A DNA stretch of 64,000 nt from an uncultured Bacteroidota bacterium (GTDB taxonomy: Bacteria > CLD3 > SB21). Under the pieces are notes generated by a model, which saw only the letters and a program-made list of their open reading frames with translations, searched no databases and was not told the origin of the DNA. The stretch covers positions 268,573 through 332,572 of the forward strand of contig CAYPYN010000004.1 in assembly GCA_964415295.1 (NCBI GenBank). Direction: 5' to 3'. Positions 819 to 58,205 of the stretch are shown piece by piece; position 1 is the first letter of the stretch; each line of letters starts with the position of its first letter. The translations under genes were made by a program, and so were the position numbers.

Positions 819-2636
819 ATGAAATCATTCTTAGACATACTCAAAGAAAAGATCATAGTATTTGATGGCGCGACCGGAACGAACCTGCAAACGCAGAACC
901 TGACCGCCGACGACTTTGGCGGAGAAGTCTATAACGGTTGCAATGAATACTTGCTGATATCGAAACCATCGGCTATGGAAAAAGTCCACGTCGAGTTCCT
1001 CAAAGCCGGCGCGGATGTAATCGAAACCAATACGTTCGGCTCTTCTTCGATCGTTCTGGCTGAATACGGTCTTCAGGACCGCGCCTATGAACTTAGTAAA
1101 TTAGGCGCAGAGCTTGCAAAGAAGTGCGCCCACGACTTCTCCACTCCGGACAAACCGCGGTTCGTCGCAGGATCTATCGGGCCGACAACCAAACTGCCGT
1201 CGCTGGGCCATATCGATTTTGAATCCATGCGAAAAAGTTTTTACGATCAATTGGCAGGTCTGTTGGACGGAGGCGCAGACATTTTTTGTATCGAAACCTG
1301 CCAGGATATCCTACAAACTAAAATTGCCTTATGCGCGGCTCAGGATCTTTTCAAGGACAGAAAGAGGAAAGTCCCGGTGATCGTATCTGTAACGGTTGAA
1401 ACGACCGGTACCATGCTGATGGGAACCGAGATCGGCGCGGCTTTGACGACGATTGAACCATTGGATATCGTGGACGTAATCGGGATGAATTGCGCTACCG
1501 GACCTAAGGAAATGTCTGAGAATATCCGTTATCTGTGCCACAATTCACCTTTGCCTGTATTTTGTATGCCCAATGCCGGAATACCTGAAAATATCGGCGG
1601 TAAGGCGCATTACCATTTGTCGCCGACGGAACTAACCCAATGGCTTGGTCATTTTGCCAAAGATTTTGGCGTCAATATTGTAGGCGGTTGCTGCGGTACA
1701 ACACCGGAACATATCAAAGCTCTTGCGGATCAGACCGGTTCGCTGAACCCCAGATCACGCGAATGGTCCTACGTCTCTTCCGTGTCATCGCTTTATAACT
1801 CCGTTCCCATGCACATCGACCCGGCTCCGATCATCATCGGCGAACGGACAAACGCCAACGGTTCTAAGAAATTCAAAGAACTTCTGATCGCCGAAGATTA
1901 TGACGCGATGGTCTCTATGGGGAAAGAACAGATTCGAGAAGGGGCTCATGTGCTCGATGTGTGTGTAGCTTATGTAGGCCGCAACGAGATCAAGGACATG
2001 GAAGAAGTTATCAAGAGGTTCAATACCCAGGTATCCATACCTATTATGATCGATTCCACGGAATACCCCGTGATGGAAAAGGCTTTGCAGATGCTTGGTA
2101 GCCGCGCTATCGTCAATTCTATCAACCTCGAGGATGGTGAGGAGCGCATATCAAAAGTACTACCCTTATGCAAACGTTACGGGGCGGCGGTGGTGGCCTT
2201 GACCATCGACGAAGACGGCATGGCCAAAACCCGCGAAAAAAAGTTTGAAATCGCTAAACGTATTCACGACCTTGCGATTAACAAATACGGTATGCGTGAA
2301 GAAGATCTGATATTCGATACGTTGACATTTACGCTGGGGTCGGGCGATGAGGAATTTAGAAAGGCCGGCGTGGAAACTATCGAGGCTATACGATTGATCA
2401 AGAAAGAATTCCCCAAGGTCAAAACGTTACTCGGAGTTAGCAATATATCCTTTGGCCTGACTCCCGAGGCACGAAACGTGATCAATTCGGTCTTTTTACA
2501 CTACGCGATAGAAGCCGGACTTGATATGGCCATCGTCAACGCCCAGAAGATCAAACCACTTTATAAGATCGACGAGAAAGAACGCGAACTGGCTAGACAA
2601 TTGATATTTGATGAGAGAAAGTACGAAGCCGCTTAA
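819..2636 (+). CDS. metH: Methionine synthase, N-terminal half only (homocysteine-binding and pterin-binding domains)
   Basis: 605 aa ending in a stop. Has an Hcy S-methyltransferase-like TIM barrel (GGCCGTTPEHI) followed by a pterin-binding barrel. No cobalamin-binding or activation domain follows; those are encoded at 56085-58205. Confidence 0.85.
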   Translation: MKSFLDILKEKIIVFDGATGTNLQTQNLTADDFGGEVYNGCNEYLLISKPSAMEKVHVEFLKAGADVIETNTFGSSSIVLAEYGLQDRAYELSKLGAELAKKCAHDFSTPDKPRFVAGSIGPTTKLPSLGHIDFESMRKSFYDQLAGLLDGGADIFCIETCQDILQTKIALCAAQDLFKDRKRKVPVIVSVTVETTGTMLMGTEIGAALTTIEPLDIVDVIGMNCATGPKEMSENIRYLCHNSPLPVFCMPNAGIPENIGGKAHYHLSPTELTQWLGHFAKDFGVNIVGGCCGTTPEHIKALADQTGSLNPRSREWSYVSSVSSLYNSVPMHIDPAPIIIGERTNANGSKKFKELLIAEDYDAMVSMGKEQIREGAHVLDVCVAYVGRNEIKDMEEVIKRFNTQVSIPIMIDSTEYPVMEKALQMLGSRAIVNSINLEDGEERISKVLPLCKRYGAAVVALTIDEDGMAKTREKKFEIAKRIHDLAINKYGMREEDLIFDTLTFTLGSGDEEFRKAGVETIEAIRLIKKEFPKVKTLLGVSNISFGLTPEARNVINSVFLHYAIEAGLDMAIVNAQKIKPLYKIDEKERELARQLIFDERKYEAA

Positions 2637-24951: not shown

Positions 24952-26295
24952 TCAGTGACGTTTGAAACCGTACTTTTCAATCTTATGATACAACGTCACG
25001 CGGTCGATCCGCAGCATTTCGGCGCTTCGCGAAATATTCCAGCGGTTCTTTTCGAGTATATGTAAGATATGCCTGCGCTCCACGGCCGACAGACTCAGAT
25101 CCCCATCGTCCAAGGGTTCCGAACGGGCAGTATGAAAAGGCAGGTCCGATACCTGTATGGAATCCGTCTTACCTACTACCAGCGCTCTTTCTATTGCGTT
25201 TTCTAATTCCCGGACATTGCCCGGCCATTCGTACCGCAACAAGAATTCCCGGGCCTCGGTACTCAGAACATGCGGTGTCTTATTCATGGCGGCGGCAAAT
25301 TTGTGCACAAAATATTCGGCCAGCGGGAGTATGTCCTCGCGCCGGTCCCGGAGTGGCGGAATGAAAAGTGTGAAGACATTCAGACGGTAATAAAGGTCTT
25401 CGCGAAACTTACCGCTTTTCACTTTTTCCTCAAGAGACTCATTAGTGGCGCCGATAATCCGGCAATCCGAAGGGATCAGCTCCGAACCACCGACCCGGGC
25501 GAACCGTTTACTTTCGAGTACTCTCAAAAGTTCTACCTGCAGACGTGTCGGTATCGATCCGATCTCATCCAGAAAAATAGTGCCTCCGTCGGCCATTTCA
25601 AAACGGCCTTTCCGGCGATGATGCGCTCCGGCCACCGCTCCTTTTTCGTGCCCGAAAAGCTCTATTTCAAGCAAAGGCTCGGACATCGCGCCGCAATTCA
25701 CCGTCACAATTGGAAAATATTTTCTTTTGCTGTTCATATGGATCGCCCTGGCCACCAGTTCCTTGCCCGTGCCGCGTTCGCCGCGGATCATGACGTTCGT
25801 TTCTGTTTGCGCGACGGAATTGATCAGTTCAAATATTTTCTTCATCGACGTACTCTCGCCGACGAGATTGTCCGGCCGGATAATCTGGTCGATTTTGTCC
25901 TTGAGTTGTTCGTTCTCTGTACGCAAGGCCTTTTGTTCAAAGGCTTTCTGCACCAGATGATTCAATTCCTCGGGATCGATCGGTTTTGTTATGTAGTCAT
26001 ACGCGCCGTCCTTGAGCGCGGTAATGGCTGTCGTGACAGAGGCATAAGCCGTAATAAGTATGACAATCGAACCCGGATCGGCTTGTTTGATCTTTTTCAG
26101 CAACGTGAGGCCATCCATATCTGGCATTCGCATGTCCAGCAAATACAGATCGTAGTGATCTTTGATCACACGCGAAAGCGCTCCCTCGCCGCTGCTTTCG
26201 GACGTTACGTCATAGCCTTCTTCTTCAAACCAATGTTGAAGCGATTCGCGTACGATCGGTTCGTCGTCTACAATCAGAAGTTTTCTTTTTTCCAT
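24952..26295 (-). CDS. Sigma-54-dependent response regulator (NtrC family: receiver, AAA+, Fis-type HTH)
   Basis: Receiver domain (DDEP…D…KP), Walker A GERGTGKE, the sigma-54 interaction loop GHEKGAVAGA, and a C-terminal HTH. The start was placed at MEKRKLL, abutting the upstream kinase stop. Confidence 0.85.
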   Translation of the reverse strand: MEKRKLLIVDDEPIVRESLQHWFEEEGYDVTSESSGEGALSRVIKDHYDLYLLDMRMPDMDGLTLLKKIKQADPGSIVILITAYASVTTAITALKDGAYDYITKPIDPEELNHLVQKAFEQKALRTENEQLKDKIDQIIRPDNLVGESTSMKKIFELINSVAQTETNVMIRGERGTGKELVARAIHMNSKRKYFPIVTVNCGAMSEPLLEIELFGHEKGAVAGAHHRRKGRFEMADGGTIFLDEIGSIPTRLQVELLRVLESKRFARVGGSELIPSDCRIIGATNESLEEKVKSGKFREDLYYRLNVFTLFIPPLRDRREDILPLAEYFVHKFAAAMNKTPHVLSTEAREFLLRYEWPGNVRELENAIERALVVGKTDSIQVSDLPFHTARSEPLDDGDLSLSAVERRHILHILEKNRWNISRSAEMLRIDRVTLYHKIEKYGFKRH

Positions 26296-26296
26296 A

Positions 26297-27934
26297 TTAC
26301 GATCCCGGTTTATCGGCCAGCGGCAATACAATCCTGAATGCGGTTCCCTCCGGAGAGGTCTTTTCAACGTCCACGCTGCCGTGATGGTGAGTGACTATGC
26401 CATAAACCACAGCCAGTCCGAGCCCAGTACCCTTACCTTCGGATTTGGTTGTAAAAAAGGGTTCATAGATGTGCGGAAGATCTTTTTCCCGGATCCCGGA
26501 ACCGTTATCTCCGATGCGTAGCACGATCTTACCGCTGTCCGTCCGGGTTTCAACGGTTATCCTGCCGTTATTGCCGATAGCCTCAATGGCATTCATGAAT
26601 AAGGCCAATACGGCTTGCTGGATCTTCTGCGGATCGCACAGTATATCCGAACGGTCGGCTTCAAAACGCTCGGATGTAACGATGCGATTCATTTCCAGAT
26701 GATGACTCACCAGCGACAGCGCCTTGCGGATAAGCGTATGCAGATCATGCCGCATAAACATTTCTTCGTCTCGATGGGAGAAAACCAGCAGATCTTTGAC
26801 AATGCGTCCGCAGCGCACCGATTCCTCCGAGATCATACCTAAATGCTCCAGTATTTTCGAATACTCGCGATCCTTTTGCATCTGTTGCAATTGCCGGCTT
26901 ATCAACTTACTGAACGTCAAAATGCCTTCGAGAGGATTATTCAATTCGTGCGCAACGGTTGCGGATAACTTGCCAAGGGCGGCTAATTTTTCTATTTGAA
27001 CGATTTGTTCGTATACTTTCTTCAATTCTTCGGTTTTTTCATTCACTTTGGTATTCAGACTCTCCGACCACTCACGGATTTCCCTATGGGCCACATCCAG
27101 CTTGGAGGACATGTCATTGAAGCGTGCGGCCAAGAGCCCCAGTTCATCACTGGAATCGAGAGTGATTCGGTAAGTCAGGTTACCCTGCCCGATCTCCCGC
27201 ATGCCTTTATGAATGCGTCTTATCGGACGATTTACCAGCACGGTAATAAAAAAGCCGCAACACAAAGAAATGATCGCGGTCAAAGCGACCGAGCCGTAGA
27301 CAATGTCTCGGGTGTTGGAGCGGATGAGTTTTTCCGCCCGATCAAACGAGATAACCACATCCAGCACACCTAGGATCTTTTCTTCGGTCTTATGGGCGTG
27401 GCATCCGGACGAGAAGCATTCTTTCTCGTTCTCGATCGGATTGATGAGGCCCAGCACCTTTTGGCCTCCGGACTGAGTGTATAAGCGGGTCAAGGCGCTG
27501 GTGGGTACCTTGGAGAGTGCTGTGGACTCGCTGTGACAAATGATGCAGGCTTCGGCCTTGATATCTACCGTTTTCAGTCGCTCCGACGGATCGGTCGAGA
27601 ACATAATGGTGCCGAGTTTATTGTAAATGCGTATTTGCACCACATCATGCTCCTTCCCGATCGTATGGATAATGTGGTGAACGTCTTCCCTCCGGTTTAG
27701 CAGCATGGAGTAACGCGTGGACTTTTTTATAACGTCGCTGAGCTGATAGGCGTTTTGCGCATACGTGCGGGTCAATTCGGATTCGAGGCGTGCGGTAGTG
27801 AAATACGTATATAGAGCAAGATTAACGAGAAGAATTCCGGAGATCACCAAGATCAGTTTGACGCTTAACTTATGTATCCATCCAAACCGCATCGCGTCTC
27901 CAATTGAAGTGTGGCAATGTACCAAAAACGACAC
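26297..27934 (-). CDS. Sensor histidine kinase with a periplasmic CxxCH + Cx4CH domain, HAMP, HisKA and HATPase
   Basis: Two TM helices bracket a ~165-aa loop containing CIICH and CFSSGCH. An H-box (HELNNPL) and N/G boxes follow. The start may instead be Met 15 (27892). Confidence 0.8.
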   Translation of the reverse strand: MSFLVHCHTSIGDAMRFGWIHKLSVKLILVISGILLVNLALYTYFTTARLESELTRTYAQNAYQLSDVIKKSTRYSMLLNRREDVHHIIHTIGKEHDVVQIRIYNKLGTIMFSTDPSERLKTVDIKAEACIICHSESTALSKVPTSALTRLYTQSGGQKVLGLINPIENEKECFSSGCHAHKTEEKILGVLDVVISFDRAEKLIRSNTRDIVYGSVALTAIISLCCGFFITVLVNRPIRRIHKGMREIGQGNLTYRITLDSSDELGLLAARFNDMSSKLDVAHREIREWSESLNTKVNEKTEELKKVYEQIVQIEKLAALGKLSATVAHELNNPLEGILTFSKLISRQLQQMQKDREYSKILEHLGMISEESVRCGRIVKDLLVFSHRDEEMFMRHDLHTLIRKALSLVSHHLEMNRIVTSERFEADRSDILCDPQKIQQAVLALFMNAIEAIGNNGRITVETRTDSGKIVLRIGDNGSGIREKDLPHIYEPFFTTKSEGKGTGLGLAVVYGIVTHHHGSVDVEKTSPEGTAFRIVLPLADKPGS

Positions 27935-27992
27935 TCAGCCGCAATACGTCTGAGAGAAGCCTGCGACCGGTTCTCAACTGGCCGCACGTCTT

Positions 27993-28724
27993 CTATAAAC
28001 TCTTGATCCGGATCTTCTGCTTAAAAAGAAAATTCAGAATTTCGAAATAATTGTCTTTACCGATACGCTGATACAAAAACCGCCCGCCCGCACCTCTGCT
28101 CATGGATGGTATTTCAGGAACCTGCTCCTTCAGTCTGACGAGCTTTCGGGAAAGGCCGATCAATTGCTGCTGCCACTCCTGCTGTGAGAGCCTTTCCCTT
28201 TCGATCTCGCCTTTCTCCGATTGAATGATGCCGAGGACGCCACGCATCGGCCCTTCGCCGATCCCATCTTCGGATTTATCAAGAAAAAGAAAATGGATCG
28301 GCGACATTACGGTCAAACCTCCCCAGGCGCCGCTCAAGGTCACACAGGCCTGACCTTTCCGGATCCGTTCGCCCTGACGGCATGGCACCACCGAGAAGAC
28401 GTTATCGAGGAACCGAATGGCCAGCGAACTGAGACTGATGCGGTATGTACGATCGGGTAATTCATCCAGAACGAGGTTGCCGGGAAGATAAATGGAACGT
28501 TTATTCGGATACTCGGTCATAAGACTATTGAGGATACGGTCGAGCATATCGGATCCGTCTTCCTGAGCCCCTATATCTTCCTTTACCGTTTGAATATGGC
28601 TGCGGTTCCTCATCACATTGTCGAAGTCACAATGCTCGCAGTCAAAGGATTTGTCGCACAGTTTATAATCCACAACATGCGAGGCCATCCAAACACATGC
28701 GGCATTTTCGATATTGCTTTTCAC
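27993..28724 (-). CDS. Stand-alone protein with an N-terminal Cys cluster and a glycine-cleavage H-protein-like domain (no lipoyl-Lys)
   Basis: C-x5-C-x2-C at the N-terminus. The central region was aligned by hand to the GcvH hybrid-barrel (…DRTYRISLSS… / …TVMSPIHF…). This alignment is weaker than for the two receiver fusions. Confidence 0.45.
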   Translation of the reverse strand: MKSNIENAACVWMASHVVDYKLCDKSFDCEHCDFDNVMRNRSHIQTVKEDIGAQEDGSDMLDRILNSLMTEYPNKRSIYLPGNLVLDELPDRTYRISLSSLAIRFLDNVFSVVPCRQGERIRKGQACVTLSGAWGGLTVMSPIHFLFLDKSEDGIGEGPMRGVLGIIQSEKGEIERERLSQQEWQQQLIGLSRKLVRLKEQVPEIPSMSRGAGGRFLYQRIGKDNYFEILNFLFKQKIRIKSL

Positions 28725-28763
28725 TTCGTTCCTCTTTCGAGGTCCGTTTGATGGTACGAAATA

Positions 28764-29927
28764 TTACCTTACAAAAAACTCAGCCACCACTTTTTGCCAG
28801 TTCACATCCGACAGTTTTTCAAACTGGCCAACATAGATCTGGCTGTCTTCGACGTATTCACCGGCCGGCTTTTCCGATTTCAAAAGGTCTTTCATCAGAT
28901 TCTTTAACTTTTCTAGATCTTCCTGGAAAAAGGCCACGGCCGACTTGCCGATGTGCATACTCTTTATCTCGTGATCGAAATTATCCGTGTCAAAAGAGCA
29001 GATCCAGTTGCCCTCGTAGGGCGTCACATCCAGCGCCGATGTATTGTCCTTGACGTACTGATTGATCTGAGATATCTTGCCGCTGACCGGGGAATTGAAC
29101 GTCACACTCCGATTGCCCTGCCTGACGGTGAATAACGGCTGGCCGGCTTTGACGGTCATTCCAAGGTTCGGCAACTCAACGGATCCGACACGACCTATCA
29201 GTTTTTTGGCAAAGTCGTCGAGTCCGACCTTGGCAATGCCCTCTTGATTGATACTGACCCATGTATGATTCTTGGAAATGAACACACCGCCCGGTATCGA
29301 AAATTCGCCGCGTACAAAATCCCCTGAGGCGGGCATGTGCGTGATGTGGACCTGCGGTTTGAGTTGTTTCTGGATCCGGTCCTGGCGTTTGATCAGGGTT
29401 TTCTTTACGAAATCCAGCAATTCATCTTCGGTAAAAGGCTTCTGCACGTAATCCATCGCACCGTATTTCATCGTCTCAACGGCTGTTTCCACGGAGGCAT
29501 AACCGGTGATAATAATCACATCGATATCCGGACGCATATGTTTGACCGCTTTGGTCACCTCCACACCGTCCATGGCCGGCATCTTGAGATCCGTAAATAC
29601 AAAATCATAATGATGCTTCTGAATAAGCCCGAGTGCTTCCTGACCTGTTTCGACGGTGTCTACCGAATAGCCGTCGAGGACCAGGATTTTGCGGAAGCTC
29701 CCCAAAATGACCTCTTCGTCATCCACACACAGAATTTTGGCCTTCGGATTTTGTACTTCGGCGCGCTTGAGCGTTTTGGCTTCATGGGTAAAGTCCAGAC
29801 GGAGGCTTTCCTGCAACACGGTCTCGCGTTCTTTCTTTAGTTTTTTCTCCGTTAACTGTTTTGCGATCACGCGAATAAGGATGTCCGCGATGATGAAGAT
29901 GATGACTGCAACGATTAATAGTGCCAT
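28764..29927 (-). CDS. Membrane-anchored response-regulator receiver fused to a GcvH-like domain
   Basis: One N-terminal TM helix and a receiver domain (…CVDDEE…FTDLKMPAMDG…KPF). The C-terminal 120 aa align with E. coli GcvH (HTW/HEW, VGLDDFA/VGITEHA, SPVSG/APVSG, PYEGNW/PYAGGW). The lipoyl-Lys position is occupied by Asn. Confidence 0.7.
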   Translation of the reverse strand: MALLIVAVIIFIIADILIRVIAKQLTEKKLKKERETVLQESLRLDFTHEAKTLKRAEVQNPKAKILCVDDEEVILGSFRKILVLDGYSVDTVETGQEALGLIQKHHYDFVFTDLKMPAMDGVEVTKAVKHMRPDIDVIIITGYASVETAVETMKYGAMDYVQKPFTEDELLDFVKKTLIKRQDRIQKQLKPQVHITHMPASGDFVRGEFSIPGGVFISKNHTWVSINQEGIAKVGLDDFAKKLIGRVGSVELPNLGMTVKAGQPLFTVRQGNRSVTFNSPVSGKISQINQYVKDNTSALDVTPYEGNWICSFDTDNFDHEIKSMHIGKSAVAFFQEDLEKLKNLMKDLLKSEKPAGEYVEDSQIYVGQFEKLSDVNWQKVVAEFFVR

Positions 29928-29980
29928 GATGTATCTCCTAGACGTTTCGTCCGGTTATGTTAGATCAATTATTTGAAACG

Positions 29981-30772
29981 TTATAATTTATCTGAACTAT
30001 AGGGTAATAATTGTCTGGTCTCGTAATCGATATCGGTCGGAATAACACGGTATATCCAGCCTTCGAAATAAGGATCTTTTTCAACAATGCTTGGGTTTTC
30101 CCTGATGCTCTTATTTACCTCAATGATCCGGCCCGATACCGGTGACAGGATCTTATGTATCCTATCATCCCCCGACCGGATCACGGCACAGCTCGTGCCC
30201 TGAGCAATCTCTTCGTCCGCGGCCAGCAATTCAATCTCTTTCACCGATTCTATGGTCTTCAGGAATAGATCGCAGACACCCACGACGGCATTGCCTTCAT
30301 TCTCCTGATATACCCAGCTGGAGTAGCCCAATCGAAGATACCGGGCCGGACATGGTACGAAAAGAAGGCCGCTATGGCGCTTAGCCTGTTTTTCCTTTAT
30401 CTCCTGGTATCGGTGAGCACGGTATAGCGAACCCAGAAGTTCATCTACCGTAAAGGGCTTCGGAATAAAATCAACAGCACCCTGATACAGGGAATTGACC
30501 GCATTCTCAACCGTCGAATAGCCGGTCATCATGATGAGCACAGCACGACTGTCCCTGTTTTTCAATTCCTCCAGGATCTGAAAACCGTCACCATCAGGCA
30601 TCATAATGTCGCAGAGTACGATCGGATACTCGTTGGCCGCGATCTTTTCAATAGCCGACTGCACATTGAGTGCCGAATCGACAACGTATTTCTCCAGTGA
30701 ACAGATCTTTATCAAGCCGTCCAGTATCACCTGTTCATCGTCTATGGCCAATATGTCTGCCGTTCGATTCAT
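29981..30772 (-). CDS. Response-regulator receiver fused to a GcvH-like domain
   Basis: Receiver domain (IDDEQ…CDIMMPDGDG…KPF), then a GcvH-like domain (…VGVCDLF…SPVSGRIIEVN…PYFEGWIYRV) with no Lys at the lipoylation position. Confidence 0.7.
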   Translation of the reverse strand: MNRTADILAIDDEQVILDGLIKICSLEKYVVDSALNVQSAIEKIAANEYPIVLCDIMMPDGDGFQILEELKNRDSRAVLIMMTGYSTVENAVNSLYQGAVDFIPKPFTVDELLGSLYRAHRYQEIKEKQAKRHSGLLFVPCPARYLRLGYSSWVYQENEGNAVVGVCDLFLKTIESVKEIELLAADEEIAQGTSCAVIRSGDDRIHKILSPVSGRIIEVNKSIRENPSIVEKDPYFEGWIYRVIPTDIDYETRQLLPYSSDKL

Positions 30773-30781
30773 GCAGTATTC

Positions 30782-32647
30782 CTATTTATAAGGCAGCCGA
30801 ATAGTGAAAGTAGTTCCTTTCCCTATTTCGCTATCAACACCGATGGTACCGTTATGATTGTCGATGATACCCCAAATGACGGCCAGGCCAAGGCCGGTAC
30901 CTTTTTGTCCTTTGGTGGTGAAAAACGGTTCGAAGATCTTTGGTAAATCTTCTTTATTGATGCCGCTGCCGGTATCGGTTATTCGGATCTCAAGATATTC
31001 TTTTAGTCCGGCCGAATCGACAAAATCCCACTTCTCCCAATCGCTGTTCTCCGAGGAACAGACCTCATAAGTTCCTTCTCCGCTGATCTCAAACGAAAGA
31101 ACCGGGGCTCCGCAATTCGGACAGTTCTTACCTTGCTGGACGATGGAATTCTGACAATCGGGACACACGTATTTCGCGTCCTTACCGATATCAAAACCTG
31201 TTGTGAAATTATTTCTGTGTTTGCCGTATATCGGATCCAAATGGATTATCCCTTCATGCCCGCCGGATATGACCTTGACCTTTAATGCTGGGAATCCGTC
31301 GATCTTGTATTCATTGTCGATGAGGCTGTGCCGCTTGGGACAAGTCGCTTTTTTGACTTGCGCCACACCGAACGGCGATAGTGAAATATGCTTGGTTGTG
31401 ATCGTGATATTTCCGCCGTCCTTACCGATCGCATCGGCGGCATTGACAAAAAGATTGATGAAAACCTGCTCCATTTGGTTGGAATCTACCGTGATCGGCG
31501 GCAGATCGGGTTCGATCTGTTTGACGATCTTGACTTTTCGCATGGACAGCTGTTTTTCGATCACGGCTATGGCTCTTACAATGATCTCTCCGACATCGGC
31601 CATGGTTTTCTTGGGAACCGATTGCCGCGCAAAATCAAGCAGACTTTTGACGATCTCACGGCTCCGCAATGTCTCACGCACGATAACTTTGAGGTCTTCC
31701 TGAAATTCAGGATTATCCTTGGTCCGTTTGAGCAGAAAACTGCTGTAGGTCAGTACGCCCGTGAGAGGATTATTGATCTCATGCGCAACGCCGGCCGCAA
31801 GTCGACCCAGAGAAGCCATCTTGTCCGATTGAAAGAGCTGCATCCTCGCTTCGGATAACTTCTTGGTCATATTGTTGAAGGATTCGCCCAGTTTACCAAT
31901 CTCATTGTCCCCCAAATCTTTTATCGCGTAACTCAAATTACCCTGACTCACCTGCTGTGTCGCGTGAAGCAGATCGCGGACCGGATGCGATACCCACCGG
32001 CCGACAAAAAAAGCGATAAGGGAGCCCAATGCTACTATGGCGATCATCGCGAAAATGACGATCTCCCACTCCCTGGTAACAATGGCATTGTCGACTTCAG
32101 CCAATGAAATTGAAACATCCAGAACTCCCAGAACCTTCTGGTTTTCCGGATGCGCGTGGCAGTCGTTTTCCCAGCAGGACCGTTCGTTGTAAATCGGCGT
32201 GATGATGCCAAGTACACGATTGGAATCCTTGTGGACCTTAAATATGCGCGTTCTTTCTGTGATAGAGATCTGCTCCAGTGCCTTATCTTCGGCGTGGCAA
32301 GCATAACAGCTCTCCTCTTTCTTATCTACCATCTTATTGATATTCGCCGAATCGGAGGAGTAGATGATCTCGCCAACTTTATTGATGATGCGGACATCGC
32401 GTATTTGAGGCTGGGTGCCGATGGAATTGATGGTCTGCTGGATCCGATCTCGCTGGTTGAACATCATATCGAATCGGGTGCTGGCGATGACGGTCTCCCC
32501 CAACTGGTTGGCATGACGCTCAACCTCCGCTATCAGCGTATTACTCTGGGACTTGATATTGAAATAGGCAAATACGCCGATGATAAGAAGCGAAGCGAGC
32601 GCAACCACGGAGATCAGACGAAATCCTATTTTATTGAACATGGTCAT
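30782..32647 (-). CDS. Sensor histidine kinase, paralogue of 26297-27934, with a periplasmic CxxCH + Cx4CH domain and a ~130-aa zinc-ribbon-containing insertion in the HATPase domain
   Basis: CYACH and CWENDCH lie in the loop between the TM helices. An H-box (HEINNPL) is present. Between the N-box (NAADAI) and the G1 box (DTGSGI) there is an insert containing CPKRH and CPDC…CPNC. Confidence 0.8.
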   Translation of the reverse strand: MTMFNKIGFRLISVVALASLLIIGVFAYFNIKSQSNTLIAEVERHANQLGETVIASTRFDMMFNQRDRIQQTINSIGTQPQIRDVRIINKVGEIIYSSDSANINKMVDKKEESCYACHAEDKALEQISITERTRIFKVHKDSNRVLGIITPIYNERSCWENDCHAHPENQKVLGVLDVSISLAEVDNAIVTREWEIVIFAMIAIVALGSLIAFFVGRWVSHPVRDLLHATQQVSQGNLSYAIKDLGDNEIGKLGESFNNMTKKLSEARMQLFQSDKMASLGRLAAGVAHEINNPLTGVLTYSSFLLKRTKDNPEFQEDLKVIVRETLRSREIVKSLLDFARQSVPKKTMADVGEIIVRAIAVIEKQLSMRKVKIVKQIEPDLPPITVDSNQMEQVFINLFVNAADAIGKDGGNITITTKHISLSPFGVAQVKKATCPKRHSLIDNEYKIDGFPALKVKVISGGHEGIIHLDPIYGKHRNNFTTGFDIGKDAKYVCPDCQNSIVQQGKNCPNCGAPVLSFEISGEGTYEVCSSENSDWEKWDFVDSAGLKEYLEIRITDTGSGINKEDLPKIFEPFFTTKGQKGTGLGLAVIWGIIDNHNGTIGVDSEIGKGTTFTIRLPYK

Positions 32648-32655
32648 GATTCAAG

Positions 32656-33801
32656 TCATTTTGTAACCGGCTTGCCGGGCTTCTGTTTCGGGTACGAATA
32701 TCCCTCGTGACATCCGCTGCAGTCCGGTTTGAGTCCGTAATTATTCTTCGAATGGCAATCGGAACATTCGAGGTCCGAATGATTATCATCGAGCTGCAGG
32801 CCTGTCACCGCATGCTTGAATGTTGCCTTGTTCCAGCCCGTATGACACCGGATGCATTGGCTGTCGACCTTCTTGAAAGGCTGTTTTGTGCCGTGGCATT
32901 TGGCGCAGGATAGTCGCTCATGGTATTTACCAAGAGCCCAACCCGTTTTCTTCGCATGATCGAAAGGCCCCAATTTGGTATCGCTATGGCAGTCGCCGCA
33001 CGCTTGATTCTTGTCATGACAGGCGATGCAACGGGAATGTTGTTCCTCAAATGAGGCATTGACTGGTATTACTCTCTTAATCGGCTGCTTCGATTTATTG
33101 GCTGCATCATGGCATTTCGTGCAGTTCTCTTGCTTGTGACAAGTAACGCATGTTAATCCGAATTTCTTGGTATGCTCATCATGATAAAAGGTAACCAATT
33201 TCCCTTTGTCGGAATTGGTCTCATACATGAGGCTGGTTGGCTCATTTAGGGTTGGATGGCTCTTCCCCGCATACATTTTTTTGTCTTTGGCGGAACCCGT
33301 TTTATCCCCTGACCTCAGTTCGTGGCAAGTATTGCATCCCGTTTCATGGCTCCATTCTCGATGGCAATCCATGCATTGACGATGGAAAGCGCCCTTCAGA
33401 TCTGGAAGACTCACATCATCTCTTTTTCTTCCCGGCTCATGGCAGCTTTGACATTTAAGAATAGGTCCTGACGTATTGTGATGATGGCAATTTTCGCAAC
33501 CGCCGGACATCACGGACATCTGCGCGTGGATTTTGTGTGAAAAATAGACCGGACCGTAGCGGTCTGTGAGTTGATCCATAACAATGAGTTCCGGTGTCTC
33601 CTCGGGCGCCTGATACACAGTAGCGATCTTCTCCCTCGGACAAAGAACCAGGCACGGTTCATCTTTGGTAGGAACTTCACACGTATGGCACGTTTTACAA
33701 CTGAGGTTCAGTTTGGTGTGGCTTTTGACAACACTCTGCTGGGCCAGGATCCGGCCGGATACGGCAACTACTAACAATATAAAGAAGAATAGCTTTTTCA
33801 T
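32656..33801 (-). CDS. Periplasmic multihaem cytochrome c (13 CxxCH motifs)
   Basis: Signal peptide, then the motifs CKTCH, CENCH, CQSCH, CMDCH, CNTCH, CVTCH, CTKCH, CIACH, CGDCH, CAKCH, CIRCH, CSDCH and CSGCH. Confidence 0.85.
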   Translation of the reverse strand: MKKLFFFILLVVAVSGRILAQQSVVKSHTKLNLSCKTCHTCEVPTKDEPCLVLCPREKIATVYQAPEETPELIVMDQLTDRYGPVYFSHKIHAQMSVMSGGCENCHHHNTSGPILKCQSCHEPGRKRDDVSLPDLKGAFHRQCMDCHREWSHETGCNTCHELRSGDKTGSAKDKKMYAGKSHPTLNEPTSLMYETNSDKGKLVTFYHDEHTKKFGLTCVTCHKQENCTKCHDAANKSKQPIKRVIPVNASFEEQHSRCIACHDKNQACGDCHSDTKLGPFDHAKKTGWALGKYHERLSCAKCHGTKQPFKKVDSQCIRCHTGWNKATFKHAVTGLQLDDNHSDLECSDCHSKNNYGLKPDCSGCHEGYSYPKQKPGKPVTK

Positions 33802-35045
33802 GACTCCACCCCTCTGATTGAGTATTTGGTGGGCTGTGCGGTGGGTTTACCAGGCAAACTTATCACTGAAAAATTCATGACTATGAAACGGTATGCGAGA
33901 ACCAACATCGCGACAAAACCCAATGTCACCGAAATCTCTCCGATGGACGGAAAGTACGGCGTGGTGGCATACGGCGGCGTATAGGCGACAATAAAGTTAT
34001 TAATGCGGTTGAGCAGTACGCCAAGAACAACCAACGTGGCGGCCGTGAACAGCAATGGCGGAGATTTCAGGACTTTGGGCGAGAGGAACATGCGTAGAGG
34101 AATAATGACCCCAAATAGGATCTCGATCGTGAACATCACGCTCTCCGTACTGAATTCCGCAAGATAAACAAAAGTCTCTCTGACGAACATATCGCCGATC
34201 TTGAAGGCGAGATATATGCCAAGCAATGGCGCAACCATGGAACCTAGCCGAGAAAGGATCGGCATTTCAGGTTTTAGCTTGAGCGAACGGGATGCAATAA
34301 GCGACTCAAAAATGACCATCGGAAAACCGACGGAAACGGCTGATAACAGGAACAGCAACGGAAGGATCGGTGTTTGCCACAGCGGATGCATTTTCTGACC
34401 GGCAATTACCATCAGAGTTCCCAGCGACGACTGATGCAGAGTTGATAAAACGACGCCGGCGATGATAAAAACAAACATAGTCTTCGAAAGGCCGCGATCG
34501 AGCAGCCGCAGTATCTTGTCTGAAATCCTGTTAAATACAGAAAGAGGCCCTGGCAAATTGACTTTGCCGATAAACCGTTCGGTAAAGATGGGCAGAAATT
34601 CTATGTATAAGACGGTCATGTAAATCATGACGCAGATACCCACTTCAAAGAGAGCGGAATTGCCGTTCCACATGATCAGCGGATGCCAGATATAATACCA
34701 GCGGCCAATGTCAACAAAAACGCCGATGGCCACGAACGTATATCCGAGCATGGCGGTTAATAGTGCGGGACGGATCACCACATGGTACTTTTCGCGGTGC
34801 ATCACATGACCCAATGCAGCGGTAGTAAAACCGCCGGCCGCCAACGCGACGCCCGCGGCCACGTCAACACCTATCCAGAGTCCCCACGGATATTGATTAT
34901 CCAAATTGGTCACCGCACCGAGCCCAAAGAGAAACCGTCCCATCAGAAATACCATCCCGTTGACAGCGATGAGAATGAGTATGATGACTCCGGGCGTAAA
35001 GAATTTATATTTGATCGGTACCGGGTTAACGGCTTCGTGGTTCAT
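33798..35045 (-). CDS. NrfD/PsrC-family integral membrane quinone-interacting subunit
   Basis: About 415 aa of polytopic membrane protein with the NrfD-family pattern. The start was placed at MNHEAVNP. ATGA overlaps occur at both ends (with the 4Fe-4S gene stop and with the cytochrome start). Confidence 0.8.
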   Translation of the reverse strand: MNHEAVNPVPIKYKFFTPGVIILILIAVNGMVFLMGRFLFGLGAVTNLDNQYPWGLWIGVDVAAGVALAAGGFTTAALGHVMHREKYHVVIRPALLTAMLGYTFVAIGVFVDIGRWYYIWHPLIMWNGNSALFEVGICVMIYMTVLYIEFLPIFTERFIGKVNLPGPLSVFNRISDKILRLLDRGLSKTMFVFIIAGVVLSTLHQSSLGTLMVIAGQKMHPLWQTPILPLLFLLSAVSVGFPMVIFESLIASRSLKLKPEMPILSRLGSMVAPLLGIYLAFKIGDMFVRETFVYLAEFSTESVMFTIEILFGVIIPLRMFLSPKVLKSPPLLFTAATLVVLGVLLNRINNFIVAYTPPYATTPYFPSIGEISVTLGFVAMLVLAYRFIVMNFSVISLPGKPTAQPTKYSIRGVES

Positions 35046-35950
35046 AGCTCTTCCTCCTCCGCTAATTCTTTGCGGCGTTTGGCGATCCACATGATCCCGC
35101 CCAGCAAAGCATAGAGGGAAACCGGCGGAACAAAATAAGCAAAAATGCCGTGCTGAATGGATTCGGATACGCCGGGCGCCGGACTCTTTCCGAGTTTGGG
35201 GAATCCGAGTTCTGAAAAATCCTTGGAAGCAAGATACAGCCAGGAAGTCCCTCCAACTTCGTATTCACCAAAAATATGATCAACATAACGGTCCGGATTT
35301 TTCTTGATTCTGTTTCTGGCAATCTTTATGAGTTCGGTACGGGAGCCGTATGTGAGCGCCTCTACGGGACATATAGCCACACAAGCAGGCCATTGACCCT
35401 CATTGGTTCGATTAATGCAAAAGTCGCATTTCATGATGCGCGGTTTCAAAGCAACCTCGTATTCAAAAGAGGGTACCTGGAACGGACAAGCCGCCATACA
35501 ATAGCGGCAGCCGATACACATGTCGGTATCCCAGACGACCGCTCCGTTCTCAAGTTTTGAAAATGCGCCAACAATGCACGCCGAAACGCAGGCCGGGCGG
35601 TCGCAATGCATACACTGTACTTTGACGTCCACGGGAAGATTGGAATTCTTGCCGTGCTCGTATTCATTCACGACGGTTAATGCCGTCGGATCAGGTCTTC
35701 TTCGAGATTCAAGGATCTTTCGGTCTTCGTATGTAACAAGTTCCCCGGCCGTCATTTGATGGGCATCTTTGCATGCCCATTCGCAATTTCTGCAGCCGAC
35801 GCAGGTCGTAGTGTCCACAAGAACACCCATCCGGTCTTCCGAAAGAATATTCGTAGGTCCTGCTTTTGCGGATGAAGCCGACAGCCCCGTAGCGGCAGCC
35901 CCGGCCACAACCGATTTCTTGAGAAAGTCGCGACGACTCTTTCCAGACAT
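35042..35950 (-). CDS. Tat-exported 4Fe-4S ferredoxin-type subunit (NrfC/HmcB/PsrB-like) with a C-terminal TM anchor
   Basis: Twin-arginine signal SRRDFLKK, four Cys clusters (CVGCRNCEWAC, CMHCDRPAC, CIGCRYCMAAC, C…CVAICP), and a hydrophobic C-terminus. The start was chosen at the Met preceding the Tat motif. Confidence 0.8.
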   Translation of the reverse strand: MSGKSRRDFLKKSVVAGAAATGLSASSAKAGPTNILSEDRMGVLVDTTTCVGCRNCEWACKDAHQMTAGELVTYEDRKILESRRRPDPTALTVVNEYEHGKNSNLPVDVKVQCMHCDRPACVSACIVGAFSKLENGAVVWDTDMCIGCRYCMAACPFQVPSFEYEVALKPRIMKCDFCINRTNEGQWPACVAICPVEALTYGSRTELIKIARNRIKKNPDRYVDHIFGEYEVGGTSWLYLASKDFSELGFPKLGKSPAPGVSESIQHGIFAYFVPPVSLYALLGGIMWIAKRRKELAEEEEL

Positions 35951-36377
35951 GTTCCGTTCCTTTCGAAGTGTTGAAAACAATTCCACCAGCATACCAATAT
36001 ACATGTGTTTTTTTTCACAAACAATGACGACCGTCATGTTTTTCAACAGTCGCTCATATTTATTTTAGACCTTTATAAAGCACTAATACTATCAATATCA
36101 ATAGCTTGTGTCGTGTTTGATGGAACGAATATAGTTTGTTACAAAAGGAACAATGTTGATTAAATGATGTCTTTTTCAATGTAAGTGTTAATAATGTAAG
36201 CACTATTGATAGCTAACGGTGTATAGAGCTTGGGAACAATAAATTCTGAGAAAACTTCCAGAAATCGCTTCGGATGAACAAAAGTTGTATGGCTTCCCTA
36301 CTTTCTACTTGATTATCAGGAAAAAAAATAATATAGATTTATATTATGTTTCTCTTTGGACCCAGTATGGAGTATCT

Positions 36378-56084: not shown

Positions 56085-58205
56085 TTATTTTATGTTAAAA
56101 TACTTGGCTTCCGGGTGATGCACAATGATCGCGCTGGTCGATTGCTCCGGTTCAAGGTGATATTCTTCGGTCAGCGATACTCCGATCTTCTCCGGCTCAA
56201 GCAATTCAAACAGTTTGGTTTGATCCTGAAGATTGGGACAAGCCGGATATCCGAAACTGTAACGTGAACCGCGATACGACTGCTGGAACAATTTCTTAAT
56301 ATCGGCATGATCGGAATGATTAATGCCAAGTTCCGCTCTCATTTGCCGGTGCCAATACTCAGCCAGTGCCTCGGCTGTCTCAACGCTGAGGCCGTGAAAA
56401 TACAAATAATCGGTGTAGTTATTGGATTCAAAAAGTCTGGCGGAAAATTCCGAAGCCTGCCGCCCGACCGTGACCAACATGCAACCAATGACGTCCATCC
56501 TTCCGGAATCCTTGGAGGCAAAAAAATCCGATATACAGAGATAATGCCCTTCCTGCTGCCTTGGAAATGCAAAACGCACGCGTTCCGACTTCATATCATC
56601 CCGATAAACGATAAGGTCGTCGCCGTCGGACTGGCAAGGAAAGTATCCGTATACAATCTTCGGAACGAGGAGCTTCTCGGACTCCGAGCGCCATTTCCAC
56701 GTCTCGAAAACGGGCCGGACTTTCCCATCAACAAAAGAATTGTATTCCGAAGACGTCATCTTGCCTCTGGTAAACTGCCATTGACCGCGGAACAAAGCGA
56801 TCTCATTGATAAAAGGATAAACATCCTTAAGCGCTACGTCTTCCACCACCCGGCTTCCCCAGAAAGGAGAGACCGGAATATTGGCTTTCGGATTTACGGA
56901 CGACCGCCGGGGCACCGACGGCGGTTTGAGCCCTTCGGCGCTCTGCCTCCGATGCAGCCAGTCCTGGACTTTTTTCAGATGTTTGTATTCATGCGCGAAA
57001 GACGATTCCGCGATGATCCAGCCTATCGTTTGATCGTGTACGGTTGTGCTCAGATACTCCGGCGATATGGACGAAACGTGATGAATCAGGTTTGACTGCG
57101 TTTCATTCCAAATATCCATCAGTTCTTCCCGGCTCTTGGATTTGTATTTCTCGACGGCTTCGGAATTGATGAGATCATTTTCCTTATCGGAAAAAACGCG
57201 GATTTGAGAACCATCGCCTCTGGCGATCCATTGCAACCGCTCGATCAATACCTGCTCCCAATGAACAAAGTGAGCGATGATGTCGTGCACCGACCAAAGG
57301 CCGATTGATTTGTCACGGTCAAACGGCTCATCCGATATGTACTCGAGAACCTTGTTCCATTGATGTTTTACGATACGGATCCTTTTAACCGTTTCCTGGA
57401 TCGTATCGGCCGGAGTGGAAAGAATATCCGCCGCGGCTTTTGTTTCCGCTTTTGCTCCGCTCATCACTTGTTCCATCACCCGTAGCCCTGAGAATGCGTC
57501 TTCACAGTAATAGAGCGGCGCATCATACACTTCTCTTAGATCCTCTTCGACATATCTTCGGGTCAGGGCGGCACCACCTAAGAGAACGGGAACGGACAGG
57601 TTTCTCTCAGCCATCACTTCCAGATTCTCCTTCATGATCAGAGTGGATTTGACCAGAAGTCCGCTCATGCCGATCGCGTCGGCTTTATGCTCCTCAAGGG
57701 CATGGATCATGGTTTCAACCGGGCATTTGATGCCAAGATTGATAACTTTGTACCCGTTGTTGGTCAAAATGATATCCACAAGATTTTTTCCAATATCATG
57801 GACATCCCCTTTTACAGTGGCCAGAACCAGCGTACCTTTTTGCGTTCCGCCTTTTTTTTCCATAAAAGGCTCGAGAAAGGCTACGGCCGATTTCATAACC
57901 TCGGCCGATTGCAGAACAAATGGCAATTGCATTTCGCCTTTGCCGAATAGTTCCCCGACAACCTTCATGCCTTCAAGAAGGATCTCGTTAATAATTTGCA
58001 GAGGCTTATGAGTTCCCATGGCCAGCTTCAGATCATCCTCGAGACCTTGTTTTTCACCGTCAATGATGCGGCCCTTCAGACGCTCTTCAAGGGAGGCCGT
58101 GGCTTTCGCGACCGTTTTGGAGGGATCGGCTTTCCGGCTTGCGTAATGGTTGATGATCTCAACCAGCGGATCGTAGACCACCTTCATTTTATCTTCTCTT
58201 TTCAA
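56085..58205 (-). CDS. metH: Methionine synthase C-terminal half (B12-binding cap and domain, AdoMet-dependent reactivation domain) with an inserted His-rich helical domain
   Basis: DxHxxG cobalamin motif (GDVHDIGKN) and a reactivation domain (…PFWGSRVV…YGYFPC…RYSFGYPACP…). The roughly 170-aa insert contains WSVHDIIAHFVHWEQ and FAHEYKH. Confidence 0.85.
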   Translation of the reverse strand: MKREDKMKVVYDPLVEIINHYASRKADPSKTVAKATASLEERLKGRIIDGEKQGLEDDLKLAMGTHKPLQIINEILLEGMKVVGELFGKGEMQLPFVLQSAEVMKSAVAFLEPFMEKKGGTQKGTLVLATVKGDVHDIGKNLVDIILTNNGYKVINLGIKCPVETMIHALEEHKADAIGMSGLLVKSTLIMKENLEVMAERNLSVPVLLGGAALTRRYVEEDLREVYDAPLYYCEDAFSGLRVMEQVMSGAKAETKAAADILSTPADTIQETVKRIRIVKHQWNKVLEYISDEPFDRDKSIGLWSVHDIIAHFVHWEQVLIERLQWIARGDGSQIRVFSDKENDLINSEAVEKYKSKSREELMDIWNETQSNLIHHVSSISPEYLSTTVHDQTIGWIIAESSFAHEYKHLKKVQDWLHRRQSAEGLKPPSVPRRSSVNPKANIPVSPFWGSRVVEDVALKDVYPFINEIALFRGQWQFTRGKMTSSEYNSFVDGKVRPVFETWKWRSESEKLLVPKIVYGYFPCQSDGDDLIVYRDDMKSERVRFAFPRQQEGHYLCISDFFASKDSGRMDVIGCMLVTVGRQASEFSARLFESNNYTDYLYFHGLSVETAEALAEYWHRQMRAELGINHSDHADIKKLFQQSYRGSRYSFGYPACPNLQDQTKLFELLEPEKIGVSLTEEYHLEPEQSTSAIIVHHPEAKYFNIK

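Follow-up and report, generated by a model that had tools for sequence, protein, structure and literature searches.

The 64,000-nucleotide (nt) stretch analysed here, referred to below as the window, comes from an uncultured Bacteroidota bacterium (contig CAYPYN010000004.1) and carries nine consecutive minus-strand genes, which we call A to I in reading order, running from position 35950 down to 24952. Genes A to C encode a redox trio, made up of a 4Fe-4S protein exported by twin-arginine translocation (Tat), an NrfD-family membrane subunit and a multihaem cytochrome. Genes D to F encode a sensor kinase and two response regulators in which a receiver domain is joined to a domain resembling GcvH. 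A further protein of uncertain kind (G), a second sensor kinase (H) and an NtrC-family regulator (I) complete the series. The first-pass annotation, made from the sequence alone, had read all nine as a single operon wiring a periplasmic redox complex to a signalling module with two kinases and three receivers. All nine open reading frames are indeed present, and the Pfam and NCBIfam profiles that we used for domain assignment bear out the identities proposed for their products, except for that of the seventh gene, G. What has to be revised is the extent of the unit. The conserved unit consists of the six genes A-F, whereas G-H-I is a separate unit that became attached to it in the lineage of the window.

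This division follows from the synteny counts across related loci. The nine proteins were mapped onto 80 loci, taken from one genome per species and belonging nearly all to Ignavibacteriota, plus one to Calditrichia; the fractions given here have as their denominators the loci with enough flanking sequence. Homologues of E are annotated as Ignavibacteria proteins and share 60-76% identity with it. D lies directly before E in 69 of 70 loci, F directly after E in 74 of 75, and A-B-C stand upstream, in order, in 61 of 63. The two exceptions (L039 and L064) have another pair of Tat-exported iron-sulfur (FeS) protein and NrfD, a small cytochrome and an extra gene for a transmembrane (TM) receiver-GcvH-like protein before D-E-F. 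The A-F order is kept in about 60 Ignavibacteria genomes and in the one Calditrichia genome, at identities down to 33-62%; a metagenome-assembled genome of Ignavibacterium album (L038) is among those with the six-gene cluster. By contrast, H and I occur within 10 kb of E in only 8 of 43 loci, five times upstream and divergent and three times downstream. Across genomes, then, there is linkage between signalling and redox genes, which is the opposite of the missing linkage that the first-pass annotation had named as the outcome that would speak against it. Its single nine-gene operon, on the other hand, is probably not correct: G-H-I adjoin the six core genes in a minority of loci, and a terminator-like hairpin precedes kinase 1.

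The junctions between the genes can be described as follows. Both ATGA start/stop overlaps claimed earlier are real, A/B at 35042-35045 and B/C at 33798-33801, the plus strand reading TCAT at both. The other gaps had been put at 0-60 nt, and this stands for C-D (8 nt), D-E (9 nt), E-F (53 nt), F-G (39 nt) and H-I (1 nt). It does not stand for the gap before kinase 1, which would measure 58 nt only with GTG 27934 as the start of H; since 12 of 12 homologues start at the position of ATG 27892, a gap of 100 nt is more likely. The G-H gap folds into a hairpin, followed in the window by a 7-nt spacer and then U5. The same hairpin is found in the two closest relatives that have this junction, where a U-rich run comes directly after it (U11 in L002, UUUUUAUUUU in L004). 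Such a hairpin and U-run suggest that H-I probably have a transcript of their own, or are attenuated.

Table 1. Genes and other features of the locus, in window coordinates (aa, amino acids; REC, receiver domain)
Feature	Position	Strand	Length	Description
A	35042..35950	-	302 aa	Tat-exported, C-tail-anchored 4Fe-4S protein (HmcB/HybA/NrfC-like)
B	33798..35045	-	415 aa	NrfD-family membrane subunit (HybB/HmcC-like)
C	32656..33801	-	381 aa	Periplasmic 13-haem c3/c7-type cytochrome with signal peptide
D	30782..32647	-	621 aa	Sensor kinase 2: Cache, HAMP, HisKA, HATPase split by Cys-rich insert
E	29981..30772	-	263 aa	Soluble response regulator: REC and lysine-less GcvH-like domain
F	28764..29927	-	387 aa	Membrane-tethered regulator: N-terminal TM, REC, lysine-less GcvH-like domain and C-terminal extension
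G	27993..28724	-	243 aa	Invariant C-x12-C-x5-C-x2-C, then very divergent GcvH-like region
H	26297..27892	-	531 aa (from ATG 27892)	Sensor kinase 1: Cache, HAMP-HisKA-HATPase; without Cys-rich insert
I	24952..26295	-	447 aa	NtrC-family regulator: REC, AAA+ sigma-54 interaction domain and HTH_8
Hairpin and U5	27924..27970	-		In the 100-nt G-H gap; terminator- or attenuator-like
ATGAC-N4-GTCAT	36024-36037	-		Palindrome upstream of A; candidate regulator site
TGTGA-N6-ACACA	36004-36019	-		CRP-like palindrome upstream of A; candidate regulator site

The redox trio had been assigned to the type of NrfC, NrfD and multihaem cytochrome, and this is supported, the best NCBIfam matches being HmcB/HybA and HybB/HmcC, all below their cut-offs. 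A matches Fer4_11 of Pfam at 69.7 bits, HmcB at 332.7 bits (its best NCBIfam match; cut-off 420) and HybA at 245.4 bits (cut-off 263). Its Tat motif, RRDFLK at residues 6-11, is present in 56 of 61 homologues, a TM helix lies at residues 269-287, and its median identity to 61 relatives is 80%. B matches PF03916 (74.6 bits) and shows about ten hydrophobic segments in a hydropathy scan; among the NCBIfam profiles, HybB ranks first (347.9 bits, cut-off 450) and HmcC second (278.6 bits, cut-off 550), and the median identity of B is 83%. The 13 CxxCH motifs of C recur in 59 of 63 homologues. C matches Cytochrom_CIII and Cytochrome_C7 of Pfam as well as the C-terminal part of HmcA (E-value 1.7e-14; NF045713 at 53.3 bits, cut-off 400). 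In none of the nine proteins did we find the domains of the cytoplasmic-side subunits HmcE (cytochrome b) and HmcF (Fer4_8 and CCG). From these family relationships we infer that A-C belong to the quinone-interacting class that combines HybA/HybB with a multihaem cytochrome and includes Hmc, Nhc and the Cbc-type systems of Geobacter. By analogy, A-C would most likely shuttle electrons between the menaquinone pool and periplasmic partners.

The two kinases share both the order TM-sensor-TM-HAMP-HisKA-HATPase in Pfam and the type of sensor. The sensor of D contains CxxCH at residue 114 and Cx4CH at residue 158, a pair found in 69 of 70 kinase 2 homologues, while the corresponding motifs of H are CIICH and CFSSGCH. 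Ten cysteines and the H-box histidine of D are invariant in 70-71 homologues, and M61, C117, H118, C158, C163, H164 and H166 are invariant in a 41-sequence alignment, where the columns of both motifs are invariant or nearly so. An AlphaFold model of residues 1-220 of D (pLDDT 81.7) has a single-Cache topology. When submitted to Foldseek, it matched WalK Cache domains (E-values from 4e-9 to 1e-5) and 3b42, the haem-c sensor GSU0935 (2.7e-5). The latter is also the best PDB match of the sensor at the sequence level, a weak one (E-value 0.15), in which Cx4CH aligns on the CxxCH of 3b42. The Cache fold, the two motifs and the likeness to GSU0935 thus agree with the earlier proposal of putative haem-binding periplasmic domains in both kinases.

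In D, the insert that splits the ATPase domain is about 120 residues long (residues ~430-548, window 31003-31360) and holds six invariant cysteines, C436, C495, C498, C509, C512 and C530 (CPDC...CPNC). It bears a weak likeness to the rubredoxin-like end of rubrerythrin (E-value 0.011) and may represent a cytoplasmic metal or redox site within the kinase. Homologous sensors are not confined to the loci described so far. One adjoins a full Hmc-like operon (HmcE-, F-, A-, D-, B- and C-like genes) of a Desulfomonilaceae genome (L081, JBTSUB010000021.1); this operon is flanked by the haem-type-sensor kinase, two single-domain receivers and a PAS-containing sigma-54 regulator. Other homologous sensors adjoin CbcBA-like genes. 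Hence the association of this sensor type with quinone-linked cytochrome modules is seen again in other lineages.

The most unusual products of the locus are the two regulators that follow kinase 2. Response_reg and GCV_H (PF01597) match E at 87.9 and 72.1 bits and F at 108 and 72.2 bits, the cut-off for GCV_H being 22.2; the NCBIfam scores for GcvH fall short of their cut-offs in both proteins. The C-terminal domain of E also matches the solved GcvH structure 1ONL with an E-value of 2.8e-13. The receivers look intact: in E, the acidic pair DD, the phospho-Asp, the T and the K are conserved in 80-81 of 81 homologues (T83 is S in one), and in F the three Asp residues that were checked are invariant in 77 of 77. 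F has a TM helix at residues 3-21 and a median identity of 79%, near that of the membrane subunit B. Neither E nor F carries a DNA-binding domain. At the position of the lipoyl lysine, E has D, F has N and G has W, and K is found in only 2 of 81 homologues of E and 1 of 77 of F. Because this lysine is replaced, the receiver-GcvH-like proteins, judged by their sequences, cannot be lipoyl carriers. The GcvH-like labels given to E and F earlier therefore hold for the fold, which is clear, and do not extend to the carrier function.

The family to which this domain belongs is not small. A search with the C-terminal domain of E against 1.84 billion representatives returned 152 matches at E-values ≤ 1e-10; among the best 150 of these, which were classified, 90 are receiver-GcvH-like and 13 TM-GcvH-like proteins. 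K occupies the lipoyl site in 2 of the 90 receiver-GcvH-like representatives. Two residues of E, Q191 and H206, flank the hairpin and are specific to the receiver-GcvH-like family. A redox-active Cys pair in place of lipoate was considered as well and rejected, C141 being present only in a subset and C195 being found also in E. coli GcvH.

Lysine-less GcvH-like domains turn up repeatedly in the company of redox proteins. In many Ignavibacteria, a paralogous five-gene module lies upstream of A in divergent orientation (for example L010:493-4145, minus strand; about 20 further loci are similarly arranged). Its genes specify, in order, a small TM protein (86 aa), a TM-GcvH-like protein without a receiver, an NrfC-like protein that has a C-terminal tail but no Tat signal, an NrfD-like protein and, at the end, a G-like protein. 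Over its full length, the TM-GcvH-like protein is homologous to the C-terminal half of F (hhalign probability 99.8%, E-value 5e-30). Canonical GGCAY-N5-TTGC sites precede the module, and three of its proteins share [AE]TM[YFM]DGG near their C-termini. Overall, lysine-less GcvH-like proteins accompany NrfCD pairs in three paralogous module types, one of which has the receiver-less version. The association extends to other redox proteins. In L085, a gene for a fusion of receiver, GcvH-like domain and Fer4_8 precedes those for a CCG protein and flavin/NuoE-like products, and alongside these lie another receiver-GcvH gene and a Cache kinase gene. In another lineage, three GcvH-like domains are fused to a protein combining a flavin adenine dinucleotide (FAD) oxidase, Fer4_8 and CCG. 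The lipoyl lysine is missing from the FeS/CCG-fused GcvH-like proteins too.

G is the protein whose earlier description, a stand-alone GcvH-like protein, could be followed only in part. No match to it was found in Pfam or NCBIfam. The profile of its family matches the C-terminal half of F in profile-profile comparison (94.5% probability, E-value 7.6e-8), and the label is thus an indirect one; in a direct comparison with the E family the result was non-significant (probability 0.5-1.3%). A member of the G family is the last gene of the paralogous NrfCD module, as described above. The family invariants are C10, W12, M13, C23, C29, C32, G132, W134, G135 and P142. The NCBI-derived protein (P0121, 231 aa) begins at M13; a start at GTG 28724 fits the family better, because the M13 start removes the invariant C10 and W12. 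A structure prediction from an 11-sequence alignment gave an unusable model (pLDDT 38).

The last gene had been described as an NtrC-type sigma-54 activator. Its architecture agrees with this: I matches Sigma54_activat (PF00158) at 223 bits, REC (PF00072) at 112.8 bits and HTH_8 (PF02954) at 45.5 bits, and has Walker A (GERGTGK) and Walker B (IFLDE) motifs. The F and T of the GAFTGA loop are required for contact with sigma-54. In I, the loop reads GHEKGAVAGA (residues 215-224, window 25624-25653), while the orthologues in related loci have GAFTGA in 7 of 10 cases and GAFAGA in 3 of 10. Since GAVAGA replaces GAFTGA, action of I as a sigma-54 activator is doubtful. Nor did the search for sigma-54 elements, which the first-pass annotation had proposed as a way to the targets of I, turn up a candidate: upstream of the operon there is no −24/−12 element matching TGGCAC-N5-TTGCW or either of two relaxed patterns, and the matches in the window as a whole are no more numerous than expected by chance.

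The related loci present a different picture. In 36 of 62, AAATGG[CT]A[CT]-N4-TTGTAT stands at a fixed −81 from the start codon of A (for example at about 4716 in L010). This motif is sigma-54-like, with the −12 element one nucleotide closer than in the canonical arrangement, and it overlaps a possible Bacteroidota-type −7 box, TAnnTTTG; it could be either a sigma-54 promoter or such a −7 box. In eleven other relatives the scoring match has the canonical N5 spacing; about eight of the eleven carry TGGCTT-N5-TTG at −45 to −103. The two palindromes upstream of A in the window (36004-36037) are kept only in the window and its three closest relatives (L001, L002 and L004), the same genomes that are without the −81 motif.

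How might these parts work together? We consider it an even call that the locus encodes a quinone-linked respiratory module gated post-translationally by its own two-component system, D-F, with G-H-I as a transcriptional add-on. D-F would be the dedicated two-component system of A-C. Kinase 2 would read the periplasm via a Cache domain with as many as two c-type haems, where the signal could be redox poise or a haem ligand, and might also sense the cytoplasm through the Cys-rich insert that splits its ATPase domain. The kinase would pass phosphate to E and F, whose GcvH-fold domains would then dock on the complex from the cytoplasm and turn it on or off. Such control would be fast and post-translational, with F tethered to the membrane. 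G-H-I, probably on a transcript of their own and with I as the predicted target of kinase 1, would provide transcriptional control, either of the A-C module or of the paralogous one. The main basis for proposing that the GcvH-like domain docks on electron-transfer complexes is its repeated pairing with NrfCD and HdrD-like proteins. A broader proposal, which we put forward more tentatively, is that receiver-GcvH-like proteins form an unrecognised class of regulators whose output binds NrfCD- or HdrD/HmcF-type complexes and whose phosphorylation gates their activity directly. The earlier view of a respiratory module with a redox-sensing circuit of its own survives in that the module and its dedicated signalling genes are linked; it narrows to the core six genes, and the link to sigma-54 is weak in the window.

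Several points weigh against the post-translational gating of A-C by D-F. The pairing of kinase and receivers follows from adjacency only, and E and F could have a different target, for instance kinase 1 or the regulator that goes with it. Binding of c-type haem by the kinase sensors is predicted from their motifs, and the haem-sensor families of Pfam score below their gathering thresholds (PF21563 22.2 versus 27, PF11845 14.2 versus 24.1), because of which we regard the sensors as a related but distinct, possibly dihaem, subtype of the haem-Cache sensors. Moreover, there are no genes for a hydrogenase, formate dehydrogenase or terminal reductase beside the operon, among its immediate neighbours and ten other large open reading frames of the window.

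Other explanations have to be weighed against this one. E and F might be phosphate sinks or connectors that modulate kinase 1 together with the NtrC-family regulator, or some other transcription factor, without touching the complex, in which case all control would be transcriptional. Two kinases with the same sensor and three receivers do lie together in the window, branched phosphorelays with receiver-only proteins are common, and the sigma-54-like −81 motif in most relatives indicates that transcriptional control exists. However, the rarity of H and I near E contrasts with D-E-F, which are always beside an NrfCD pair. A sink needs neither a conserved output domain nor a tether, yet the GcvH-like part is strongly conserved, Q191 and H206 included, and a receiver-less version exists in a paralogous NrfCD module. 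We therefore think it rather unlikely, although not negligibly so, that E and F serve in this way. An idea that starts from the output domain itself is that the GcvH-like domains are true carriers or redox proteins in the manner of LbpA, the lipoate-binding protein of heterodisulfide-reductase-like systems in sulfur oxidisers, and that they shuttle electrons or a cofactor where the complex faces the cytoplasm. HdrD/HmcF-type FeS and CCG proteins act on dithiol/disulfide carriers in other systems, and the same domain family is fused to just such proteins; the fold, too, is clearly that of GCV_H. Yet the lipoyl lysine is almost absent from the families of both E and F, from the wider family and from the fused proteins, no conserved Cys pair takes its place, and the upstream receiver domain suggests regulation rather than catalysis. 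A carrier function accordingly strikes us as improbable.

The signal, in turn, might be a haem ligand such as nitric oxide (NO) instead of redox potential, with the module serving nitrosative stress or nitrogen-oxide metabolism in place of general respiration. Haem-Cache domains have been reported as NO sensors, and GSU0935, which the sensor resembles, has been placed in the haem-Cache family (PMC12889525). Against this stand the score for PF11845, which is below gathering, the second invariant motif Cx4CH, which marks a different subtype, and the lack of any nitrite, NO or N2O reductase gene beside the operon in the set of neighbours and large reading frames just mentioned. On balance NO sensing seems unlikely, but it retains some weight; it would alter the signal and not the architecture, and is compatible with gating of A-C by D-F. 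There remains the view that a respiratory operon and unrelated two-component genes have come to lie side by side by chance. Two-component genes are abundant and often found beside unrelated operons, but fortuitous adjacency is already contradicted by the synteny, that is, by an A-F order retained at the low identities given above, and the genes are joined by overlaps and gaps of 8-9 nt. We give this view almost no credence.

As for the surroundings, the neighbours of the operon are pheT, PPK2 and transketolase genes, and scans with Rfam and for tRNAs gave no match within the locus. Elsewhere in the window, methionine synthase appears to be split into two distant genes, at 819-2636 (plus strand) and 56085-58205 (minus strand). 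One encodes the homocysteine-methyltransferase and pterin-binding domains; in the other, a DinB_2-like segment stands between the domains for B12 binding and activation.

Parts of this system have precedents. A paper of 2023 described a module that stands by itself and consists of a Tat FeS protein with a tail anchor, a HybB-like quinol oxidase and a cytochrome of the c type; its authors placed HmcB/HmcC in the same class and saw no conserved genes flanking the three (bioRxiv 10.1101/2023.11.02.564894). Our trio is similar in having A with a Tat signal and a C-terminal tail, a cofactor-less NrfD/HybB-like B and an adjacent multihaem C; it differs in its constant attachment to a kinase and two receiver proteins. 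Its cytochrome has 13 haems, rather than 8, 9 or 16. The presence of regulator genes recalls the hmc operon, where these are rrf1 and rrf2, but unlike in Hmc of Desulfovibrio, HmcE and HmcF are absent and the equivalog cut-offs for HmcA, HmcB and HmcC are missed. The cut-offs are likewise missed for HybA/HybB of NiFe hydrogenase 2, and in contrast to that system no hydrogenase is found among the neighbours or the scanned large reading frames.

CbcBA of Geobacter sulfurreducens, which is controlled by the sigma-54-dependent BccR (bioRxiv 10.1101/2021.04.15.440034), offers another parallel: a quinone-linked cytochrome module stands beside an NtrC-family regulator, and CbcBA is induced by redox potential. 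However, CbcBA consists of a dihaem cytochrome b and a 7-haem cytochrome c and not of an NrfCD pair, its control is transcriptional, receiver-GcvH-like proteins have not been described there, and the loop of the regulator is altered in our case. The sensors resemble the haem-c Cache sensors GSU0582 and GSU0935 (DUF3365/Tll0287) in their periplasmic single Cache domain, covalent-haem motif and HAMP-linked transmitter; they differ in that a second invariant motif, Cx4CH, accompanies CxxCH, and in that haem binding is predicted here. According to a 2026 preprint, haem-containing Cache domains fused to signalling modules act as sensors of NO and not of oxygen (PMC12889525). Finally, E and F match GcvH and LbpA in fold and in many core residues, but have lost the lysine, are fused to a receiver and show the family-specific Q and H flanking the hairpin.

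What is already known, therefore, is the class of the redox trio, redox-responsive NtrC-family control of a quinone module, as in CbcBA/BccR, and the presence of regulator genes in the hmc operon. In the literature that we searched, which omits most subscription journals, no published account of a receiver joined with GcvH or of GcvH together with NrfD was found, nor any description of a system of this composition, in keeping with the earlier remark that none was known. Three aspects look new: the invariant pairing of a haem-Cache kinase and two receiver proteins with this redox module, the lysine-less GcvH-like output, and the fact that this domain is associated more widely with NrfCD and HdrD-like proteins.

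The respiratory flexibility of anaerobes is usually put down to transcriptional control. The locus presents a conserved and testable case of regulators that have no DNA-binding domain and whose genes invariably accompany those of the complex. The haem-Cache sensors, themselves only recently described, would gain a probable dihaem variant. If docking or gating by the GcvH-like domains holds true, these proteins would constitute a new response-regulator output class of at least 90 clusters at 50% identity, giving a function to widespread proteins annotated only as 'response regulator' or 'GcvH', and would show a route by which quinone modules of the NrfD type may be switched quickly.

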